From NCBI RefSeq assembly GCF_000299365.1, contig NC_018655.1:1440001-1472000 (forward strand): a stretch of DNA of 32,000 bases, in the 5' to 3' direction. Below, one piece after another: positions 307-29,200 of this stretch (position 1 is the first letter of the stretch; every line of letters starts with the position of its first letter). This DNA is from Candidatus Nitrosopumilus koreensis AR1. Lineage in GTDB: Archaea; Thermoproteota; Nitrososphaeria; Nitrososphaerales; Nitrosopumilaceae. The notes beneath the pieces were generated by a model. The model ran no database searches. It worked only from the letters and a program-made list of their open reading frames with translations, and was not told the DNA's origin. Made by a program: the position numbers and the translations under genes.

Positions 307-1142
307 TTTATCATCATCTCAATTGTTTTAATATCTAAATTATTTTTTACAGTTTTTGCCAGTTTGTCTAGTTCTTTATCTATTTTTGAGATATTATTTT
401 TAGTCCATGTAATTTGTTTTGCTTTGACATTAAGTGAATCTTCTTCAGGGAGATTCATTTTCATCATGGGAATAGTCCCAATAATAGGGATCTTTGTAAG
501 TTGTTTTATTTTTCTAAATCCTGGTTTTAGGACATTAATGTCTCCTCTAAATTTATTTAATACAAATCCTTTTACCAATTTTTTATATTTTTTTTCAATT
601 AAGGCCATAGTACCAATCAAACTTGCAAATGAACCGCCTTTGTCAATATCTGAAACCAAAAATACAGATGCATTTGCTTTTTGAGCAATTTGCATATTTG
701 CAATATCATATTTTTGTAAATTAATTTCAGCTGGAGAACCTGCACCTTCCAAGATTACCAGATCATAGTTTCTTTTGAGTTTTGATAATGAAGTAGTAGC
801 TGCTTTGATTCCTTTTGATTTTACAAATTTTGTATAGTAATCTTTTGCATGCATTTTCTTGTAATATTTTCCATTAAGGTAAACTGCACTATAGTAATTT
901 CCCAAAGGTTTGAGCATTATGGGGTTCAAGTCAGGTTCGATTGGGCACTTTGCAGCAATAGCTTGAATTGCCTGAGCACGAGAAATCTCAAAATCAGGAG
1001 TGGTATAACCAAAATTAGACATATTTTGGGATTTGAATGGAGCTACACGGTATCCTTTTTGTTCAAAAATTCTACACAATGCTGCAACTAACGTTGTTTT
1101 TCCAGCACCAGAAGATGTGCCCTGAATCATCAAAGACTTCAT
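303..1142 (-). CDS. cobQ: Cobyric acid synthase CobQ/CbiP-like ATP-dependent synthetase domain only. The glutamine amidotransferase domain is absent.
   Basis: 279 aa. It has the P-loop MIQGTSSGAGKTT and the conserved CobQ N-domain blocks APFKSQNMSN, LEGAGSPAEINL, SDIDKGGSFA, LNKFRGD and LPEEDS. The ORF ends about 45 aa after LPEEDS and its TGA overlaps the cbiB ATG, so there is no room for a GATase domain. Confidence 0.85.
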   Translation of the reverse strand: MKSLMIQGTSSGAGKTTLVAALCRIFEQKGYRVAPFKSQNMSNFGYTTPDFEISRAQAIQAIAAKCPIEPDLNPIMLKPLGNYYSAVYLNGKYYKKMHAKDYYTKFVKSKGIKAATTSLSKLKRNYDLVILEGAGSPAEINLQKYDIANMQIAQKANASVFLVSDIDKGGSFASLIGTMALIEKKYKKLVKGFVLNKFRGDINVLKPGFRKIKQLTKIPIIGTIPMMKMNLPEEDSLNVKAKQITWTKNNISKIDKELDKLAKTVKNNLDIKTIEMMIK

Positions 1143-2218
1143 GCTATTGCCTCCATAGCAGATACAAGTTTTAGATTATCTTTATGAGATTTTACTGCAA
1201 TTCGAATATAGTGATTGTTTAATCCACGGAAATTTTTACAATCACGAATCAATATTTTATGTTTTAATAATTTTTTTTGAATTTTTGTTGAATCTTGTTT
1301 TGTTTTTATTAAAATAAAATTTGTTGAAGAGTCATGACATTCAAAGCCAGTAATTTTAGCAATTTTCTTTTTTAGAAAAGTTGATTCTTTTTTAATAAGT
1401 AACTTTGATTTTGTAAGGTGTGATTTATTTTTAATTGCAGTAATTCCTGCTTCTTGAGCTAATGCATTAACACTCCAAGGAATTTTTATTTTTTTTAAAA
1501 TTTCAATTATAGTTTTTGAACCAACACCATATCCAATTCTGATTCCCGCTAATCCAAATGATTTTGTTAATGATCTTAAAACAAAGAGATTATCATATTT
1601 TTTTACTAAATTTATTATAGATTGATCTGATTCAGGTACCAATTCAATAAAACACTCATCAACAAATACAAAACTGGATTTATTTTTTGCAGCTAAGATT
1701 ATTTTTGTTATTTGTTTTTTTGACAATATAGTTCCAGTTGGATTATTTGGATTACATACAAAAACACAGCCATTCATAGGAATTTTTGAAATGAATGAAT
1801 CTATATTTTCAGAAAGATTCATTGTTTTAAAAAAAGTAAATTTACAATCAACAAGTCTTGATGCAGATTCATATTCACTAAAAGTTGGAGTTGGAATTAA
1901 AACATGCTTTTGAGATAGAAATGAATTACAGAAGTTATAGAGTATTTCAATTGCGCCATTGCCAACAACTATGTGAGAATCTGATAATCCAATGTATTTT
2001 TTGAGGCTGGAGATTAAGTTGATTGAATTTGTGTCAGGATAATGCTCCATTTTATCTAGTCTTTTTTTTATAGCAGATTTTACGGATGAGGGCATTCCTG
2101 CAGGACTAGTATTTGAGCTAAAATCTAAGACATCAATCTGTTGATTTCCTCTAGAAAATCTACCCCCATGAGATATTGGGTGGTGTTTGATAATGCTTGT
2201 TTTTGTCCGAATTTTCAC
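1139..2218 (-). CDS. cobD: L-threonine-O-3-phosphate decarboxylase CobD (PLP-dependent, HisC-like class I/II aminotransferase fold).
   Basis: The track ORF is 1139-2287. Motifs are SHGG near the N-terminus, LDFSSNTSPAGMP, CNPNNPTG and SLTKSFGLAGIRIGY (PLP lysine). It overlaps the cobQ-like start by 4 nt. I prefer the GTG at 2218 (16 aa before HGG) over the TTG at 2287, which would overlap asd. A HisC function cannot be excluded from sequence alone. The cobalamin context favours CobD. Confidence 0.7.
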   Translation of the reverse strand: MKIRTKTSIIKHHPISHGGRFSRGNQQIDVLDFSSNTSPAGMPSSVKSAIKKRLDKMEHYPDTNSINLISSLKKYIGLSDSHIVVGNGAIEILYNFCNSFLSQKHVLIPTPTFSEYESASRLVDCKFTFFKTMNLSENIDSFISKIPMNGCVFVCNPNNPTGTILSKKQITKIILAAKNKSSFVFVDECFIELVPESDQSIINLVKKYDNLFVLRSLTKSFGLAGIRIGYGVGSKTIIEILKKIKIPWSVNALAQEAGITAIKNKSHLTKSKLLIKKESTFLKKKIAKITGFECHDSSTNFILIKTKQDSTKIQKKLLKHKILIRDCKNFRGLNNHYIRIAVKSHKDNLKLVSAMEAIA

Positions 2219-19908: not shown

Positions 19909-20466
19909 CTAATTTCCTTGCTCAGCAACATCTCGTGTGAGATTTTCAGCCAGATCTTCATAGTGTTTTCGTGATTTTCCCAAACCGTTGAGTTTTTCGG
20001 TTTCAATCTCGTTTAATTCACCATCAACCTTTTGTGCTACATATTGCAAACGAGCTTCTGCCATCATAAACAATCGATTATTTTCTTTCCAAAGGTGTTC
20101 TGTGATATGTTCAACATATTGTTTCATATCACTAATCAGTTTTGTAGAATCACCTGAAGAAAGGTATTCTTTTGCAGAAGCCTCCATGTTTGATCCAATT
20201 TCTCTAGAACGTTCATGATCCATCAACATCATTGCTATAGGTCCCATATTTTTTGGCATTCCAGCTTGTTCTAATGCAGGAAACAAAGAATTTTCTTCTT
20301 TACTATGATGACAAACATCGGTAAAGTTTTTGGAAAAATCAATTACAGGAAGTAAGATAGATTCAGGAATTTTTTTATTTTCGTTTAATAATTGGATAGT
20401 TGCATCCATTGCTTTGATAACTTTTTCAATTAAATCATGATCACGTCTTAATGATGCAGTTGACAT
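19909..20466 (-). CDS. Hemerythrin HHE cation-binding domain protein.
   Basis: The pattern RRDHDLIEKV...HHSKEENSLFPALE...DHERSRE...HLWKENNRLF gives the paired H/HxxxE ligands of the hemerythrin fold. Confidence 0.8.
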   Translation of the reverse strand: MSTASLRRDHDLIEKVIKAMDATIQLLNENKKIPESILLPVIDFSKNFTDVCHHSKEENSLFPALEQAGMPKNMGPIAMMLMDHERSREIGSNMEASAKEYLSSGDSTKLISDMKQYVEHITEHLWKENNRLFMMAEARLQYVAQKVDGELNEIETEKLNGLGKSRKHYEDLAENLTRDVAEQGN

Positions 20467-20533: not shown

Positions 20534-20568
20534 GTTAACGAGTTATCGTTAACGAGTGGTTTTAACGA
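20534..20568. promoter_or_regulatory. Three phased TTAACGA(G) motifs upstream of the hemerythrin gene (candidate operator).
   Basis: gttaacgagt occurs at 20534-20543 and 20548-20557 (14-bp spacing), and ttaacga at 20562-20568. The middle copy sits in the 8-bp palindrome CGTTAACG. The motifs lie 68-102 nt upstream of ATG 20466. Confidence 0.3.
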
Positions 20569-20873
20569 TTAGAGAGGCTTTTTGATTTTACAAACGCCCA
20601 AATCTTTTTGGTCATTTCACTTGGAGCAATTGGTTTGTTGCCAAATATTTGTTCAGCAGTTTCTTTTCGACCTGCAAAACTAATGGAGTATCCACCAAAT
20701 GCGGGTTTCTTTGCTTTTGATTTAGTAGTTTTCTTTTTTGGTGCTGCCTTTCTTTTTGGTGCTGCCTTTCTTTTTGGTGCTGCCTTTCTTTTTGGTGCTG
20801 CCTTCTTTTTTGTAGTAGTTTTTCTTTTGGTTGTTTTCTTTTTTACCGCCAATTTCTTGTAGTTGTAATTCAA
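20562..20873 (-). CDS. Lys-rich protein with an (AAPKRK)x4 repeat and a short SWIB/MDM2-like C-terminal segment.
   Basis: The track ORF starts at TTG 20873. An in-frame TTG at 20852 would give MAVKKKTTKRKTTTKKK..., parallel to the MAVKKKTTTKKR start of 5374-5874. The C-terminus IAPSEMTKKIWAFVKSKSL resembles the SWIB pattern (..R.E..K.LW.YIK...L). Confidence 0.65.
   Translation of the reverse strand: MNYNYKKLAVKKKTTKRKTTTKKKAAPKRKAAPKRKAAPKRKAAPKKKTTKSKAKKPAFGGYSISFAGRKETAEQIFGNKPIAPSEMTKKIWAFVKSKSLSNR
20740..20811. repeat. 18-bp tandem repeat, four copies.
   Basis: ggtgctgcctttcttttt occurs three times exactly, followed by ggtgctgccttctttttt. It encodes AAPKRK repeats on the minus strand. 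Confidence 0.95.
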
Positions 20874-20888
20874 ATAAAGTATAAGAAC

Positions 20889-21545
20889 TTAGAGCTTTTC
20901 ATAATGTAGAACTAGATGATTCTTGAGCCTCTTTACTGATTTGAGTCTAAGATTTGGAGAATTGGAAATTTTGCTGAATCCTGTACCACGTAAATAGGAT
21001 ATAGAATCATCACCACCAATTAAGAATGGTGACAAGGTGATAATCATTTCATCAAAAAAGTCATGCTTAACAAATTCCCAATTTACGGTTCCCCCACCTT
21101 CAACAAGGATTGTTTTGATATTTTTTTCAGAGAGTTTTTTTAGTAATAATTTTAGATTAACAGAATTTTTGCCAACAGTGATTATTTCAATGGGAAATTT
21201 TTGTAATTTTGCAAGGTTGGCGTTAGTAATTTTTTTAGATGTTGCAATAATGGTAGGAACTTGGTGGCTTGATTGTAGAATTTTTGATGTTTTAGAGATG
21301 CTTCCTTCAGAATCTAAAATAATCCTAGTCGGATTTTGCCCTTTAGTGTGACGAACAGTCAGCATAGGGTTATCACGAGATATAGTATTTTTTCCCACAA
21401 GAATTGCATCTACACTAGAACGTAATTTGTGTAGTCTCTTGATATCTTCTTTAGATGAAAGTTTTGAATCATTTGTTTTTGTTGCAATTTTTCCATCAAC
21501 AGATATTGCTGCACTAAGAATAACATGAGGTCTAGAGTTTTCCAT
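20889..21545 (-). CDS. arfC: 2,5-diamino-6-(5-phosphoribosylamino)-4(3H)-pyrimidinone reductase (RibD C-terminal-domain type, archaeal ArfC). No deaminase domain is present.
   Basis: RPHVILSAAISVDGKIATKTNDSKLSS..DIKRLHKLRSSVDAILVGKNTISRDNPMLTVR and ILVEGGGTVNWEF are reductase-domain blocks. The start is taken at ATG 21545 (the track's TTG is at 21563). Confidence 0.85.
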   Translation of the reverse strand: MENSRPHVILSAAISVDGKIATKTNDSKLSSKEDIKRLHKLRSSVDAILVGKNTISRDNPMLTVRHTKGQNPTRIILDSEGSISKTSKILQSSHQVPTIIATSKKITNANLAKLQKFPIEIITVGKNSVNLKLLLKKLSEKNIKTILVEGGGTVNWEFVKHDFFDEMIITLSPFLIGGDDSISYLRGTGFSKISNSPNLRLKSVKRLKNHLVLHYEKL

Positions 21546-22722
21546 GTACGATTTTTCCTCCAATCATGACAGCTTTTATTGCAGATTCAGATGCTCTATG
21601 AACAATTGATGCATAAGGATCATGTATTGGTTCTAAATCCAATGCATGTTTATCAAGAAATATACAGTCAGCAATCTTTCCAGTTTCAATTATTCCGATA
21701 TTTTTTTTCAGTATTTTACCACCATTTACCGTGGACATTTTTAGAATTTCTTTAGGATTAACTCTTTTTTTATGAATGCCCATTGTGACTTTCCAAAGAT
21801 AATCCATTTCTCTAAACATATCAGGTGAGTTTATCATTACATTATCTGTGCCTAATGCTAGCGTACAACCTGCTTTTTGCATTAAAGTGATGTCAGGAAT
21901 CCCTTCAGCCAAAGAGGCATTAGCTCTTGGACAAATAACAATGCCTCTGATTTTTTTTGCTGCAGCACGTAAATCACTTTTTGATGCATAAGTCATGTGT
22001 ACAAGAAAATGGGGTTTTAGAGACAATGCCCGAATTGTTTCAGATTTTCCAGTCATCTTTTTAGATTTTGATACGCTTTGTTTGGTTTCAGAAGAATGGA
22101 TTGCTCTGATTTTTGATGTTTTAGAGTAATGATTAAGAACTGAATTACTATTTTCGTTTGCTCCACTTATACCCAATCCATCACATTTTTGAAGAATCAA
22201 AGGCAATTTTTTGGCTTGTTCTTTTGGAATAGGTAGATTTTTTTTAATTTCAAGTGAATCTTGGTAAAAATCTACTCTTCCCAAAATTATTGATCGAATG
22301 GGGAGTTTGGATAATGTTTTCTTTAATAAAATCACACCATCTAATCCCCCTTCTCTAAAATCAACAAAAGTGGTAATGCCTTTTCTAATCATAGAGTGGC
22401 AAGTATTTTGCATAAAATTTGATAAATTCTCAGGAGGTGTGTTTTTTAGAATTTTTGATTTTGCTCCAAAAACAGGATGTATTTTTTTATCTACAGAACT
22501 GTCAAGTGTAACATCCTTTCCAATAGAATCACCTATGTGAGTATGTGCATTAATGAATCCAGGAATAAGTAATAGTCCTTCACAGTCAACAGAATCCTCT
22601 TTAGTACTTGGTTTTATGTTAGGTTGGATTCGCTTGAATTCTCCATTTTTGATTTGAATATTTGTTTGTGAAACAAAATCTAATTCTTTTCCTAGTAGTA
22701 GGCTAATATTTTTGATTAACAT
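21532..22722 (-). CDS. Amidohydrolase-superfamily protein of the deaminase/chlorohydrolase type. The substrate is unassigned.
   Basis: 396 aa. The metal and catalytic signature is PGFINAHTH (HxH), IHSSET (H..E), LVHMTY (His) and LGTDN (Asp). It overlaps the arfA stop by 7 nt and the arfC start by at least 14 nt. Confidence 0.85.
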   Translation of the reverse strand: MLIKNISLLLGKELDFVSQTNIQIKNGEFKRIQPNIKPSTKEDSVDCEGLLLIPGFINAHTHIGDSIGKDVTLDSSVDKKIHPVFGAKSKILKNTPPENLSNFMQNTCHSMIRKGITTFVDFREGGLDGVILLKKTLSKLPIRSIILGRVDFYQDSLEIKKNLPIPKEQAKKLPLILQKCDGLGISGANENSNSVLNHYSKTSKIRAIHSSETKQSVSKSKKMTGKSETIRALSLKPHFLVHMTYASKSDLRAAAKKIRGIVICPRANASLAEGIPDITLMQKAGCTLALGTDNVMINSPDMFREMDYLWKVTMGIHKKRVNPKEILKMSTVNGGKILKKNIGIIETGKIADCIFLDKHALDLEPIHDPYASIVHRASESAIKAVMIGGKIVHGKL

Positions 22723-23468
22723 GATAATTCATAAACTTCAGGTTTTTCTTTTCCTGAATCTCGAATTTCACGAATAGTATCTAGTGACTTTGTGGCTAGT
22801 TTTACAGCTTCTCTACAAGTACTTGCATTACCAATACCGCAATTCAAAGAAATGTTATCATCATTTTTTATCATATTGATGAAATTTTGGACAGAGTTTT
22901 TTGCATCATCACTTGCAACCACCATGAAATTATCACCACCCATAAAAAATGTCAGTGAATTTTTTTCCAAGAAATATTTTGACATTTTTGAATACAATTG
23001 AAAAATTATTGAGGATATTTCGTATGGGGAGTTTGTCGTTCTCCTAGAAGTAAGATCATCAACATCTAAATGCATTATAGTAACTTTGGAGGAAGATGTA
23101 TCATTTACAAAACCAAAAATGTTGTATTGTTTATCTAGAATAATGTTATTTTTCTTGCCTTCATATGCTTTCAGATTTGCATCAAATGGAGATTCAGCAA
23201 ATCCAATTGAAATGGCCAGATGTATTTCAAATGATTTTTCAAGGGTTTTTTGAATTTGGATGTGATCTTCTAGCCCAAGACCATTTGAAACAACAAAGAA
23301 TTCATCAAATCTGTTAAGAAATACAAGACAATTTTTTTCAGAAAATAATTTTTGTACTTGTTTGTAAAGAGATGCCTGAAGCATTTGAAGTTCATGTTCT
23401 CTATCACTGCCCAGAGTCAAAGTCCATGGTCCATAACCAGTTATTTTTAGAATGCTTAACTGAATCAT
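22716..23468 (-). CDS. arfA: GTP cyclohydrolase III (archaeal, FAPy-forming).
   Basis: The N-terminus MIQLSILKITGYGPWTLTLGSDREHELQMLQASLYKQV matches the characteristic GCH III start (MIQ.T.I.I..YGPWT.T....RE..LQ.LQ..LY). FFMGGDNF is also present. It overlaps ribH by 4 nt. Confidence 0.85.
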   Translation of the reverse strand: MIQLSILKITGYGPWTLTLGSDREHELQMLQASLYKQVQKLFSEKNCLVFLNRFDEFFVVSNGLGLEDHIQIQKTLEKSFEIHLAISIGFAESPFDANLKAYEGKKNNIILDKQYNIFGFVNDTSSSKVTIMHLDVDDLTSRRTTNSPYEISSIIFQLYSKMSKYFLEKNSLTFFMGGDNFMVVASDDAKNSVQNFINMIKNDDNISLNCGIGNASTCREAVKLATKSLDTIREIRDSGKEKPEVYELSC

Positions 23469-23881
23469 TTTTGAATCCTTTTTAGTTCAGAGGAGATTTT
23501 TACTACAGCTTCCACTGCACGTTCAGCTACAGGTCTTATTCTAGCATGTGCGTGTCTTTCTTGCATGCCAGGACCAGATATTCCTAAAGATACTGGTTTT
23601 TTGTGTTTTATAGATAAATCAGTTAATGCTTGAGCAGCTGCATGAGAGATAACCTCATCATGTTTTGTTTGTCCCTTGATAATTGCACCTAAGGTAACTA
23701 CTGCATCAACATCACTTTTTTGCAACAAAGCATCAACAATGATAGGCATATCATATGCACCAGGTACAGAACAAGTATAAGTTATTTTTAGCTTTAAAGA
23801 ATTGGCTTTTTCTTGTGCAACTGAAAACATCCTAGATGTCACTTTGTCATTAAATTCCGAAACCACTATAGCAATATTCAA
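23465..23881 (-). CDS. ribH: 6,7-dimethyl-8-ribityllumazine synthase.
   Basis: 138 aa. The blocks are IAIVVSEFNDKVTSRM, VPGAYDMP, VVTLGAIIKGQTKHDEVIS and a GISGPG-type segment. Confidence 0.9.
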   Translation of the reverse strand: MNIAIVVSEFNDKVTSRMFSVAQEKANSLKLKITYTCSVPGAYDMPIIVDALLQKSDVDAVVTLGAIIKGQTKHDEVISHAAAQALTDLSIKHKKPVSLGISGPGMQERHAHARIRPVAERAVEAVVKISSELKRIQK

Positions 23882-23883
23882 AA

Positions 23884-24549
23884 TTAATGCACCTTAGCGT
23901 ATTCTAATAGTTCTTTTCCATCAATTAATGGAATTCCATTTTGTTTTCCAAACTTTTCTGCCTTGTCAACAGATAATGCAGTATATGTTTCAGCATCCAT
24001 CATTTCACAAATTGCAGTTACAGGAGTCAAACCTGCAATCTGTGCAAGATATACGGACATCTCTGTATGTCCTTGACGTGCTGCTAACAAACCTTTTGAT
24101 GCAATTAACAAAGGAACATGTCCAGGAGTTTTAAATGATGATGCGAACTTTTTTTGTTTGTTCTCAACATTATAGATATTTGCCATTTCTCTTATAGTCA
24201 AAGATCTGTCATTATCAGTAATTCCAGTATAAGTCTGATAATGATTTACAGACAATGAAAATGTTGGATGATCACCATAAGGTGCCAGTCCCATGATCAT
24301 CTCCTTATTTGGAATTGAGGAATCAGATAAAATTTCGTGCATATATTTTAGTTCTAATGAATTTGCAAAGTTGTTATCTATTGCAATACAAAGTAATCCA
24401 CCAGCATGTTGACGCATTCTAGCAACATGTTCAGGAGTAACAAATTCTGCAGCTACTACCATGTCAATCTCATTTTCCCTTCCTGCAGAATCAAACAAAA
24501 GTACAAACTCTCCTCTTTTTAGAGATTGTAATGCAGATTCAAGAGACAT
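23884..24549 (-). CDS. ribB: 3,4-dihydroxy-2-butanone 4-phosphate synthase.
   Basis: MSLESALQSLKRGEFVLLFDSAGRENEIDMVVAAEFVTPEHVARMRQHAGGLLCIAI matches the RibB core. The start is taken at ATG 24549 (the track's GTG at 24606 adds a hydrophobic, non-conserved extension). Confidence 0.9.
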   Translation of the reverse strand: MSLESALQSLKRGEFVLLFDSAGRENEIDMVVAAEFVTPEHVARMRQHAGGLLCIAIDNNFANSLELKYMHEILSDSSIPNKEMIMGLAPYGDHPTFSLSVNHYQTYTGITDNDRSLTIREMANIYNVENKQKKFASSFKTPGHVPLLIASKGLLAARQGHTEMSVYLAQIAGLTPVTAICEMMDAETYTALSVDKAEKFGKQNGIPLIDGKELLEYAKVH

Positions 24550-24627
24550 AAACAAAAAAATCCTCAAACGGATTATAAAGTTTACTAAAAAATTGGTAAT
24601 TACCACTAAAGTAGTAGATTATCGTGT

Positions 24628-25215
24628 TTATTTTAGGATGTATTTCCCAAGAATGTCAGTTTCAATATTAACTTTGTCGCCTACTTTTTTGGTTTGAAAA
24701 TTTGTAACCTCAATTGTATGAGGAATTAATGATACAGATGCAAGATTTTTTTTAATGTCAACTACAGTCAGGCTTATCCCATCAACTGCAATGGAGCCTT
24801 TCTTCACGACATACTTTGCTAATTTTTTAGGTACCTCAAACCAAACTTGAACTTCTTTAGGTTTTTTTAGAATTTTTTTGATAATTCCTACTCCATCAAC
24901 ATGACCTAAAACAAAATGACCTTCTAGTCTATCTCCGGCTTTTAAACTTCGTTCAATGTTTACTATTCCACCAACTTTAAGATTTCCAAGATCAGTTTTC
25001 TTTGTTGTCTCTTCAATCATTTCAAATATACAGTTTGATTTTGACAGTTTTGTTGCCGTAAGGCAAACACCATTTAGTGCAACGCTTTGTCCAATTTTAA
25101 GTCCTTTTGCATGTTTTCCCAGATTCACAGTCATTTGTATTGCACTTCTATTTTTTGTATTTTTAGAAATTTTTTCTACCTTACCTATTCCCTCAACAAT
25201 TCCAGTAAACATCAA
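24628..25215 (-). CDS. ribE: Riboflavin synthase, eubacterial/eukaryotic two-barrel type.
   Basis: The canonical N-terminus (M)MFTGIVEGIGKV is present. The internal duplication is visible (GQSVALNGVCLT / GSIAVDGISLT), as is LIPHT. Confidence 0.9.
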   Translation of the reverse strand: MMFTGIVEGIGKVEKISKNTKNRSAIQMTVNLGKHAKGLKIGQSVALNGVCLTATKLSKSNCIFEMIEETTKKTDLGNLKVGGIVNIERSLKAGDRLEGHFVLGHVDGVGIIKKILKKPKEVQVWFEVPKKLAKYVVKKGSIAVDGISLTVVDIKKNLASVSLIPHTIEVTNFQTKKVGDKVNIETDILGKYILK

Positions 25216-27258: not shown

Positions 27259-28113
27259 TTATTTAACAAGGTCAAGTAGTGCCTTTGCTTGTTTAAAATG
27301 AACCTCATCAATCATTTTTCCATCAACAGTAGTAGCACCTTTTCCTTTTTTTGTTGATGCAAGATAGGTTTTGCAAACTTTCTCAGCCCACAAAATTTCA
27401 CTTTTGTTTGGATGAAACAATTTGTGAGTTACAGAAATATGATCAGGATGAATAATGCTTTTTCCAGAATAGCCCAAACTTTTTCCAACTTTGCAATCTT
27501 TTTCTAATCCTTTTGTATCTTTAAGATCTTGCCAGATGGCATCAATTGCAGCAATACCTGCTGCACGTGCATCTACAGGAATTTTTCTTCTAGAGTATTT
27601 TGCACCTTCAGATTCTTTAGTATATTCTACTCCAAGATCATTGAGAAGATCAAATACGCCAAAAACTACCGCTGATACTCGTTTACTACAAGAAGCTATT
27701 TCGTAGGTGTTTACAACACCTTCTGCAGATTCTATAGAAGGGATTAGTTGCACGGGTTTTAGTTTACGTGTTTTTTCCAACCCTGAAATTATTTTTTCAA
27801 TTTTTTTGAGTTCTGTTGTGTTGTTGACCTTTGGAATTACAATTCCATCAATTCCTTTTTGAACAATTTCTTTAAGATCTGCAGGAATTTTGCCAGACAG
27901 AGGAGAATTTGTACGAACAAAAATTGAAGATTTGTATGATTTTCTAGATTTGAGTGCAGACTTGATTAGCTTTCTTGCAGTTGTTTTTTCAGCATCTGGA
28001 ACAGAGTCCTCTAAATCAAAACAAACAATATCAGCCTGTAGCGTTTTTGCTTTTTCTAGAAACCTAGAATTATTTCCGGGAACAAAAATGAGACTACGAA
28101 AGAGCTGAGTCAT
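27259..28113 (-). CDS. HpcH/HpaI aldolase / citrate lyase beta (CitE)-like acyl-CoA lyase.
   Basis: RSLIFVPGNNSRFLEKAKTLQADIVCFDLEDSV, IPSIESAEGV, VFGVFDLLNDLG and GKSIIHPDHI match the CitE/malyl-CoA-lyase family blocks. Confidence 0.85.
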   Translation of the reverse strand: MTQLFRSLIFVPGNNSRFLEKAKTLQADIVCFDLEDSVPDAEKTTARKLIKSALKSRKSYKSSIFVRTNSPLSGKIPADLKEIVQKGIDGIVIPKVNNTTELKKIEKIISGLEKTRKLKPVQLIPSIESAEGVVNTYEIASCSKRVSAVVFGVFDLLNDLGVEYTKESEGAKYSRRKIPVDARAAGIAAIDAIWQDLKDTKGLEKDCKVGKSLGYSGKSIIHPDHISVTHKLFHPNKSEILWAEKVCKTYLASTKKGKGATTVDGKMIDEVHFKQAKALLDLVK

Positions 28114-28120
28114 TAAATGA

Positions 28121-29200
28121 CTAAGCGCCTTCTGGCTTCATTAAGATTTTGCCAAAGAGTCCCTTACCGGTTAACATCTTTGTGTGAGCCTCAGCTGCTT
28201 GCTCAAATGTGTAAGTTGAGTCAATTGCTGCTTTGATTTTTCCTTGACCCATCCAGTAAAGGGCTTGATCAAGTTCGGCTTTGGTTCCTTGTGTTGAACC
28301 CAAGATGTTAGTTCCCTTAAAGAAGATGTGTCTCAGGTCAGTGTGTGCATCATAACCTGTTGTTGCACCACATGAAACTAGTGTAGCACCATATTTGAGT
28401 AAGGTTAGTTGTTTGTTCCAATGAGTCTCACCAATGTGATCAAATGAAACATCAATTCCTGGGACTTCACCTTTCTTTTTGGCAATTTCTTTGGTAATTG
28501 CTCTTACTTCTTTGTGCCAATCATCTTTTCTGTGATCAACCGCATAATCAGCACCAAGTTCTAGACATTTGTCTAATTTGTCTGGGCTTGCAGTTGCAAT
28601 AACATCACAATTGTATAGTTTTGCAATTTGAATTCCAAAACTTCCTACTCCAGAACCACCACCCATAATAAGTACGGTTTGACCGGGTGTAATCTTGGCT
28701 CTACCAACTAGCATATGCCAAGAGGTAAGAATTGTCATTGATGCAGCTGCTGCTTCATCATATGAAACGCCTTCAGGAATTTTTGAAACATTAACTTCTG
28801 GTAAGTGGGTTACTTCTTGATAAGCTCCCCAAGTTGGACCAGTTTGGAATCCCCAAATCATTCTGTTAACACAGTCAAATTCTCTTCCATCCGTACATGC
28901 TTTACAAACTCTGCATGACATGTTTGAGTGGGAAACTACTCTATCTCCAACTTTGATATTTTTTACATCCTCTCCAACTGCGATGACATCACCTGCAGCA
29001 TCAGAACCTGAAACATGTGGTAATGGTACAGGTACTGGTTGTCCTCGCATACCCCAAATATCATTATAATTTAGGGCTGCAGATTTTACTTTAAAAACAA
29101 CTTCATCTGCTTTTGGTTTTGGTTCATCTATATCCTGGACTTTAAGGATCTTAGCATAATCATCATCTGGTGCATATTCATTGTATACAACGGCTTTCAT
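28121..29200 (-). CDS. Zinc-binding medium-chain dehydrogenase/reductase (MDR), enoyl/acyl-CoA reductase-like.
   Basis: 359 aa. It has the structural-zinc cluster CRVCKACTDGREFDC, the Rossmann motif IMGGGSGVGSFGIQIA and the N-terminal LNYNDIWGMRG segment, as in crotonyl/acryloyl-CoA reductase-like MDRs. Its G+C is visibly higher than that of its neighbours. Confidence 0.85.
   Translation of the reverse strand: MKAVVYNEYAPDDDYAKILKVQDIDEPKPKADEVVFKVKSAALNYNDIWGMRGQPVPVPLPHVSGSDAAGDVIAVGEDVKNIKVGDRVVSHSNMSCRVCKACTDGREFDCVNRMIWGFQTGPTWGAYQEVTHLPEVNVSKIPEGVSYDEAAAASMTILTSWHMLVGRAKITPGQTVLIMGGGSGVGSFGIQIAKLYNCDVIATASPDKLDKCLELGADYAVDHRKDDWHKEVRAITKEIAKKKGEVPGIDVSFDHIGETHWNKQLTLLKYGATLVSCGATTGYDAHTDLRHIFFKGTNILGSTQGTKAELDQALYWMGQGKIKAAIDSTYTFEQAAEAHTKMLTGKGLFGKILMKPEGA

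Follow-up and report, generated by a model that had tools for sequence, protein, structure and literature searches.

An amidohydrolase encoded between arfA and arfC in Candidatus Nitrosopumilus koreensis is a probable pyrimidine deaminase of archaeal riboflavin and F0 biosynthesis

Pyrimidine deaminases of riboflavin biosynthesis are known from bacteria and fungi. The N-terminal domain of bacterial RibD and the fungal enzyme Rib2 share the cytidine deaminase (CDA) fold; RibD deaminates the ribosyl form of the intermediate, and Rib2 the ribityl form. Orthologs of the RibD-type deaminase are missing in Archaea (PMC5397151), and when Archaea make riboflavin and the F420 precursor, deamination is one of the last steps that still lack an experimentally assigned gene. 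A candidate specific to archaea, called PyrD, was proposed from gene clustering and co-occurrence in the SEED by Osterman, Overbeek and Rodionov in 2010, a proposal that is described as untested (PMC5397151). Rodionova et al. found PyrD in RbkR regulons of 15 genomes in 2017 (PMC5397151), and Pfeiffer et al. named HVO_2483 and MJ0699 as candidates in 2021 and still called for experimental confirmation (PMC8305020). None of the papers on the candidate states its fold, and a 2026 review of riboflavin enzymology contains no mention of an archaeal deaminase. Here we report on a window of 32,000 nucleotides (nt) of the ammonia-oxidizing archaeon Candidatus Nitrosopumilus koreensis AR1 (contig NC_018655.1, positions 1,440,001 to 1,472,000; G+C content about 32 %), in which a metal amidohydrolase of the COG0402 type with 396 amino acids (aa), in the following called AH, is encoded within a riboflavin operon (positions 21532-22722 of the window, minus strand). 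The original prediction, made from the sequence alone, had proposed that AH is the archaeal pyrimidine deaminase and that no archaeal gene had been experimentally assigned to this step. The latter still appears to be true, but PyrD (MJ0699, HVO_2483) had already been published as a candidate; the deaminase idea is a re-derivation of the prediction of 2010/2017 and is not new. What is added here is stronger and broader evidence, namely an Asgard cluster, clusters that contain the complete pathway, linkage to cofG and cofH, a fusion with ArfB, and a conserved operator. AH is linked to arfA and arfC, is left over when all other enzymes of complete clusters have been assigned, is linked to cofG and cofH, and has the catalytic residues of a deaminase. 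These results therefore favor the proposed function, and AH is probably the pyrimidine deaminase of the archaeal riboflavin/F0 pathway.

The position of AH between arfA and arfC is kept beyond its close relatives, throughout the Nitrososphaerota down to a clade with about 40 % identity, and in an Asgard metagenome-assembled genome (MAG). Within the window, the start of the AH gene and the stop codon of arfA overlap by 7 nt (ATGTTAA), and the end of the AH gene overlaps arfC by 14 nt or 32 nt, depending on whether arfC starts with the ATG at 21545 or the TTG at 21563. A profile scan from a seed of 13 sequences, which returned Nitrosopumilaceae alone, yielded 80 genome loci, including those of Nitrosotenuis, Nitrosarchaeum and Nitrosopelagicus. 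As far as the contigs reach, the order ribE-ribB-ribH-arfA-AH-arfC was found in all 80, with AH identities of 65-90 %, and the arrangement is therefore not due to chance. A further 80 metagenome loci were seeded from a deep clade and grouped by identity to AH. The arfC gene was located directly downstream of AH in 37 of 37 loci with at least 60 % identity, in 25 of 25 loci with 41-59 % identity, and in 7 of 9 loci with 40 % identity or less. For arfA directly upstream of AH the respective numbers were 36 of 37, 23 of 23, and 7 of 10.

Several of the more distant loci contain larger parts of the pathway. The Nitrosomirales locus L096 has the same ribE-ribB-ribH-arfA-AH-arfC operon as the window. 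At locus L097, with an AH that is 40 % identical, the genes cofG-cofH-ribB-ribH-arfA-AH-arfC-creatininase(ArfB)-ribE-HAD are arranged on one strand, and at L100-L102 the order is ribB-ribH-arfA-AH-arfC-arfB-ribE. In these clusters, deamination is the only step without an assigned gene, and AH is the only enzyme that is left over. The arrangement AH-arfC-cofG-cofH was found at L087/L088 and L155, and at L088 AH and arfC overlap by 4 nt. CofG and CofH use 5-amino-6-ribitylaminouracil, which the reductase, the deaminase and a dephosphorylation together are expected to yield. In the Asgard MAG, which belongs to the Hodarchaeota (L179), the order ribH-arfA-AH-arfC is accompanied by an adjoining creatininase gene and a nearby gene for a HAD hydrolase. 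In the window and in all of these clusters, arfC lacks a deaminase domain.

In one lineage, AH and a creatininase domain are parts of one polypeptide (P0252/P0563/P0564, 24 metagenome contigs). The creatininase domain of the fusion shares 32 % identity with the ArfB protein of L097. The fusion protein P0563 has a length of 580 aa (L089-L091, 7001-8743), and its neighbors include open reading frames (ORFs) of 1025 and about 2700 aa that have no Pfam match. This neighborhood contains almost no Pfam-annotated genes and provided no context.

The AH sequence contains the four amidohydrolase motifs named in the original prediction, i.e. PGFINAHTH (54-62), IHSSET (with H209 and E212), HMTY (H242) and GTDN (D293). 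In an alignment of 46 diverse homologs, H60, H62, E212, H242 and D293 were invariant and H209 was nearly so, with a conservation of at least 90 %. D65, K88, R266 (within CPRxN), N294 and R376 are specific for the family and are also invariant or almost invariant. The residue pattern of HxH in strand 1, a His and HxxE in strand 5, a His in strand 6, and an Asp in strand 8 is complete in AH.

AH is 100 % identical to a protein of Candidatus Nitrosopumilus koreensis AR1 that is annotated as an 'amidohydrolase'. The family assignment was based on Pfam and NCBIfam profiles. The match to Pfam Amidohydro_1 (133 bits) spans the full length of AH. The only NCBIfam model that AH passes is NF005552/PRK07213, named 'chlorohydrolase', with 320.8 bits versus a cutoff of 294 and an alignment of AH residues 1-387 to positions 2-377 of the 382 model positions. 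This is an equivalog model with no defined activity, and its name carries no tested function. The scores of relatives with the same model scatter around the cutoff of 294, with 323 bits for P0140, 292 for Methanolliviera, 275 for Hodarchaeota-type proteins and 232 for the fusion protein. AH remained below the curated cutoffs of PRK07228 (102.8 versus 522), PRK15493 (57.9 versus 779), TIGR02967 (65.6 versus 375.4) and the 8-oxoguanine deaminase model PRK08203 (89.2 versus 532). In total, the models for 5'-deoxyadenosine, methylthioadenosine/S-adenosylhomocysteine (MTA/SAH), guanine and 8-oxoguanine deaminases, with DadD and MtaD among them, for SsnA and HutF, and further models were missed by hundreds of bits. 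AH also has no match to PF02633 (creatininase).

No close relative of AH has a solved structure. An AlphaFold2 model was built on the 46-sequence alignment and has a mean predicted local distance difference test (pLDDT) value of 94.2 and a predicted template modeling (pTM) score of 0.93. AH is folded in the model as a (beta/alpha)8 TIM barrel with a small beta-sandwich that is formed from the N- and C-termini. In a Foldseek comparison with the PDB, the top 50 matches all belonged to the COG0402-type deaminase/chlorohydrolase group (TM-scores 0.72-0.88), and the nearest solved folds, with TM-scores of 0.8-0.88, were 15-22 % identical in sequence. The group comprises MTA/SAH/adenosine deaminases (4gbd, 4dyk, 4f0r, and TM0936 1p1m), the isocytosine deaminase Vcz (7ww2/8is4), guanine deaminases (2uz9/4aql, 2i9u, 6ohb), and AtzA/TrzN. 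AH shares with these structures the barrel plus beta-sandwich and the residues of the mononuclear site (HxH, His, HxxE, His, Asp). By analogy, it would also share their chemistry, in which an exocyclic amino group is hydrolyzed off an amino-oxo heterocycle. AH differs from them in D65 after the HxH motif, in R266 and in GTDN. On the substrate side, the AH family has HTHxGDS and CPRxN, whereas MTA/SAH deaminases have HGHAAMS and CPESN. The proposed substrate differs as well, being a phosphorylated ribityl-aminopyrimidine instead of a base or nucleoside. Profile searches and structure prediction thus place AH within the COG0402-type group, as had been expected, and outside every characterized subfamily. 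The conserved catalytic residues and the distinct substrate-side motifs therefore characterize AH, as far as sequence and model can indicate, as a catalytically competent deaminase-type amidohydrolase with a specificity class of its own. Neither the CDA fold of the RibD N-terminal domain and Rib2 nor its zinc site with the pattern H/C-A-E ... PCxxC is related to AH.

The proposed pathway would start with ArfA, which would open GTP to a formylamino-pyrimidine. The formate would then be removed by an ArfB of the creatininase fold, whose gene would lie at another place in the genome, and ArfC would reduce the ribosyl side chain to the ribityl form. AH would act after the reductase, as Rib2 does, and would hydrolyze off the 2-amino group of 2,5-diamino-6-ribitylamino-4(3H)-pyrimidinone 5'-phosphate, yielding 5-amino-6-ribitylamino-uracil 5'-phosphate. 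After dephosphorylation, the product could be converted to riboflavin by RibH, together with the RibB product, and RibE, or could be used by CofG/CofH for the formation of F0 for F420. In analogy to the deaminases of guanine, cytosine and adenosine, H60, H62, H209 and D293 would bind one divalent metal that activates a water molecule, E212, the Glu of HxxE, and H242 would shuttle protons, and a tetrahedral intermediate at C2 would collapse with the loss of ammonia. The ribityl hydroxyls and the 5'-phosphate may be bound by conserved polar and basic residues that are specific for the family, with D65, K88, R123, R266 (CPRxN) and R376 as candidates. We infer which form of the substrate is used (ribityl or ribosyl, phosphorylated or not), in which order the steps proceed, which metal is bound and what the family-specific residues do. 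It seems fairly likely that an enzyme with an amidohydrolase fold has replaced the CDA-fold deaminase of RibD/Rib2, that this replacement is conserved from ammonia-oxidizing archaea (AOA) to Asgard archaea, and that it feeds both riboflavin and F0/F420 synthesis. If so, a CDA-fold deaminase would clearly have been displaced by a non-orthologous enzyme, a TIM-barrel amidohydrolase.

A few observations weigh against the assignment of AH as the pathway deaminase. In Methanocaldococcus, Methanobacterium, one Thermoplasmata lineage and Syntrophoarchaeum, and for P0140, the homologous gene is located apart from riboflavin genes; this is a weak negative because, at least in methanogens, the riboflavin genes themselves are dispersed. 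Two homologs with about 31-32 % identity are encoded in catabolic contexts. P0309 is accompanied by GntR, a sugar ABC transporter, a zinc alcohol dehydrogenase, an FGGY kinase and a DeoC aldolase, and the actinomycetotal P0398 by a hydantoinase, a nitrilase, a dihydroorotase-like amidohydrolase and a luciferase-like oxidoreductase (L094, 7001-8257, and L178, 7001-8266). Both have retained the family motifs, and no signature residue cleanly separates them from the members linked to riboflavin genes; homology by itself therefore does not suffice to transfer the function to every member of the family. Lastly, no enzymatic or genetic characterization of an archaeal deaminase candidate was found in the searchable literature. 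P0309 and P0398 probably deaminate a different N-heterocycle, possibly one that is ribityl- or sugar-linked, and more than one function may be present in the wider family. As judged from gene order, the deaminase assignment is safest for members that are syntenic with arfA/arfC, and these include the gene of the window.

Three alternative functions of AH were considered. The first is that AH is a deaminase of the pathway that acts at another point, either on the ribosyl intermediate before ArfC, as in bacteria, or on the ribityl compound once its phosphate has been removed. The archaeal order of reduction before deamination would then be invalid, or at least not general. At L105/L106, arfB and AH are adjacent separate ORFs with AH directly after arfB, and neither arfA nor arfC is nearby. 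The fusion of an ArfB-like domain to AH would likewise fit consecutive deformylation and deamination, and the state of the side chain of the substrate is not fixed by any sequence data. However, the most common arrangement of AH is an overlap with arfC, not with arfB. In addition, the reductase of Methanocaldococcus jannaschii has the diamino ribosyl compound as its substrate (cited in PMC5397151), and therefore deamination follows reduction in at least this species. This alternative is unlikely for AH in general. In the lineage with the ArfB-AH fusion and at the loci with adjacent arfB and AH, however, deamination may come directly after deformylation, and the order of the steps may thus differ among archaea.

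The second alternative is that AH is a general salvage or catabolic deaminase for 5'-deoxyadenosine/MTA/SAH, guanine, cytosine or a creatinine-type substrate, which merely resides in a riboflavin operon. Relatives of AH are labeled in databases as cytosine/adenosine deaminase-related proteins, 5'-deoxyadenosine deaminases or MTA/SAH deaminases, COG0402 is counted as a step of creatinine degradation in AOA genomics (PMC7848895), and the catabolic operons of the two distant homologs also point in this direction. Opposed to this are the scores with the curated models, which are far under the cutoffs, the substrate-side motifs, which are unlike those of MTA/SAH deaminases, the overlapping position between arfA and arfC, which is kept from AOA to Asgard archaea, and the linkage to cofG/cofH. 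We regard a salvage function as very improbable.

The least probable alternative, by a slight degree, is the one that the original prediction had kept as a fallback, i.e. that AH is a non-orthologous replacement of ArfB and hydrolyzes the formamide that GTP cyclohydrolase III produces, some other protein being the deaminase: ArfB is indeed absent from the window and from the 8 kb on both sides in 80 of 80 Nitrosopumilaceae loci, and enzymes of the amidohydrolase superfamily are able to hydrolyze amides, but a separate creatininase-fold gene is present beside AH at L097, L099-L102, L104, L107, L150 and L179, a creatininase domain is fused to AH in P0563, and two enzymes for a single step would be implausible within an operon or a polypeptide, HxxE and the closest structural matches are those of deaminases/chlorohydrolases, and a PF02633/COG1402 protein has been reported for 23 of 23 thaumarchaeal genomes, including free-living Nitrosopumilus (PMC7848895). 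The joint occurrence of AH and a creatininase-fold protein in single clusters and in one polypeptide therefore makes it unlikely that both do the same job, and the assignment of AH as the pathway deaminase is preferred to all three alternatives.

The AH family is very likely identical with the PyrD family of MJ0699 (Q58110) and HVO_2483, a conclusion that is drawn from descriptions and from the PRK07213 homologs of Methanocaldococcus. The same reaction has been proposed for both, and PyrD, which is known as a hypothesis alone, is supported by evidence of the same types, i.e. clustering with riboflavin genes, co-occurrence and RbkR regulons. The homolog of Methanocaldococcus villosus reaches 531 bits with PRK07213 and is 39 % identical to AH, and Methanocaldococcus infernus also has a PRK07213 member. 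The M. villosus gene has SBDS, an isopropylmalate-dehydrogenase-like gene and an aminotransferase gene as neighbors. A connection of the Methanocaldococcus homolog to MJ0699 via synteny was attempted with fibrillarin and Nop5 (MJ0697 and MJ0694) and showed nothing. Haloferax omics tables give HVO_2483 (D4GTA3) a length of 337 aa and the label 'amidohydrolase domain protein'. The possibility of a CDA-fold candidate, raised by the remark 'RIB2 in KEGG' in the supplement of Pfeiffer et al., was resolved indirectly by this label. In low-salt-adapted Haloferax, HVO_2483 and ribH (HVO_0974) are both down-regulated, with log2 fold changes of -1.0299 and -1.0297, respectively (PMC12852389), which hints at co-regulation.

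The family is widespread among archaea. When 1.84 billion cluster representatives were searched exhaustively, 191 of them matched with E <= 1e-30. Named members belong to the Nitrososphaerota, the Asgard Hod-, Hel- and Njordarchaeia, the Thermoplasmata, Altiarchaeota, Hydrothermarchaeota and Archaeoglobi, and further members to Syntrophoarchaeum, Methanosarcinales, Methanolliviera, Nanoarchaeia, Methanocaldococcus, Methanofervidicoccus and Methanobacterium. One marine cluster of Actinomycetota is also included. A profile search for euryarchaeal members was dominated by Nitrososphaerota, and the homologs of Methanocaldococcus and Methanobacterium were reached with the single query P0249, whose composition is like that of thermophilic methanogens. 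If the deaminase function is confirmed, it would close the gap in the pathway and would give the right name to thousands of proteins that are labeled 'chlorohydrolase', 'cytosine deaminase', '5'-deoxyadenosine deaminase' or 'amidohydrolase'.

The assignment would also affect the interpretation of AOA genomes. In genome papers on AOA and sponge symbionts, a COG0402 'cytosine deaminase' together with a PF02633 'creatinine amidohydrolase' has been read as a potential for creatinine degradation (PMC7848895). If AH is the deaminase, the pair in AOA would represent the riboflavin-pathway deaminase and ArfB and not the use of creatinine. The inference of creatinine use by AOA may be unsafe because the context data point to deaminase and ArfB roles, and the gene neighborhoods suggest that roles in the riboflavin pathway are the simpler explanation for COG0402 and PF02633 proteins.

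For RbkR, the riboflavin kinase/regulator, the operator described in Thaumarchaeota is TTAC-N10-GTAA, usually with two adjacent sites (PMC5397151). In the window, the only exact copy of this palindrome is located at 24582-24599, in the gap between ribE and ribB, and directly abutting it, at 24600-24617, is a second copy with one mismatch. The tandem is kept in 65 of 72 Nitrosopumilaceae loci, and at least one site is present in 71 of 72. The exact and the one-mismatch site in the ribE-ribB gap therefore place ribB-ribH-arfA-AH-arfC behind a predicted riboflavin-responsive RbkR operator. This arrangement suggests that the five genes form a regulated unit, and ribE may be transcribed separately. 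A different potential regulator was observed at L097, where a 244-aa protein with HTH_3 and DMRL_synthase (lumazine synthase-like) domains is encoded divergently beside the cofG-cofH-rib cluster (1078-1812, minus strand); from its domains it is a candidate for a lumazine- or riboflavin-sensing regulator.

The six closely packed minus-strand genes of the window were all present at the coordinates and with the overlaps and gaps that had been described originally, as verified by reading the junctions from the sequence. The bacterial-type riboflavin synthase gene ribE (24628-25215) encodes two Lum_binding domains (PF00677, 160 bits) and passes the NCBIfam riboflavin synthase equivalog with 226.6 versus a cutoff of 155. 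It is followed, after a gap of 78 nt with the tandem operator, by ribB (23884-24549; PF00926, DHBP_synthase, 199 bits; TIGR00506, 219.7 versus 177). The mechanically called ribB ORF begins with a GTG at 24606 and would cross the operator. Because residue 23 is the first one covered by the DHBP_synthase match and 24549 offers an ATG, the start of ribB was placed at this ATG, which is probably the true start. A gap of 2 nt separates ribB from the 6,7-dimethyl-8-ribityllumazine synthase gene ribH (23465-23881; PF00885, 115 bits; TIGR00114, 129.6 versus 84.6), and ribH overlaps arfA by 4 nt (ATGA). The arfA gene (22716-23468) encodes GTP cyclohydrolase III (IIa; PF05165, GCH_III, 174.5 bits), and AH is followed by arfC (20889-21545, or to 21563 with the TTG start), the gene for the 2,5-diamino-6-ribosylamino-4(3H)-pyrimidinone 5'-phosphate reductase. 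ArfC matches PF01872 (RibD_C) with 167.8 bits and passes TIGR01508 (rib_reduct_arch) with 195.6 bits versus a cutoff of 186.45, and it aligns solely with the C-terminal part of the eubacterial RibD model, positions 135-336. As the original prediction had claimed, arfC is thus a reductase domain alone; Pfam and NCBIfam revealed no CDA-type deaminase domain in either arfC or AH. The claim that ArfB is not encoded in the window was also correct, as no ORF for a creatininase-fold protein was found there, nor one for a CDA-fold protein or for RbkR.

Several further genes surround the riboflavin cluster. A 103-aa lysine-rich protein with repeated KRKAAP units is encoded at 20562-20873 (minus strand), and an ORF of this kind is located directly downstream of arfC in 56 of 80 Nitrosopumilaceae loci. 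An NCBIfam match (E 3.6e-5) indicates a weak likeness of its C-terminal part to the SWIB-like tail found in topoisomerase fusion proteins, and it may serve as a small protein that binds nucleic acids or belongs to chromatin. A further gene, at 19909-20466 (minus strand), encodes a hemerythrin/HHE-domain protein that is weakly similar to the RIC/YtfE iron-sulfur repair family, and it is kept downstream of the riboflavin cluster in 46 of 80 loci. On the ribE-proximal side, a second conserved neighborhood consists of a gene pair for an HpcH/HpaI-type aldolase/lyase and a zinc alcohol dehydrogenase, located at 27259-29200 (minus strand), about 2 kb from the cluster and with three other ORFs in between. 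The same pair is also found on the ribE-proximal side in the Nitrosomirales contig L096 (2187-4201).

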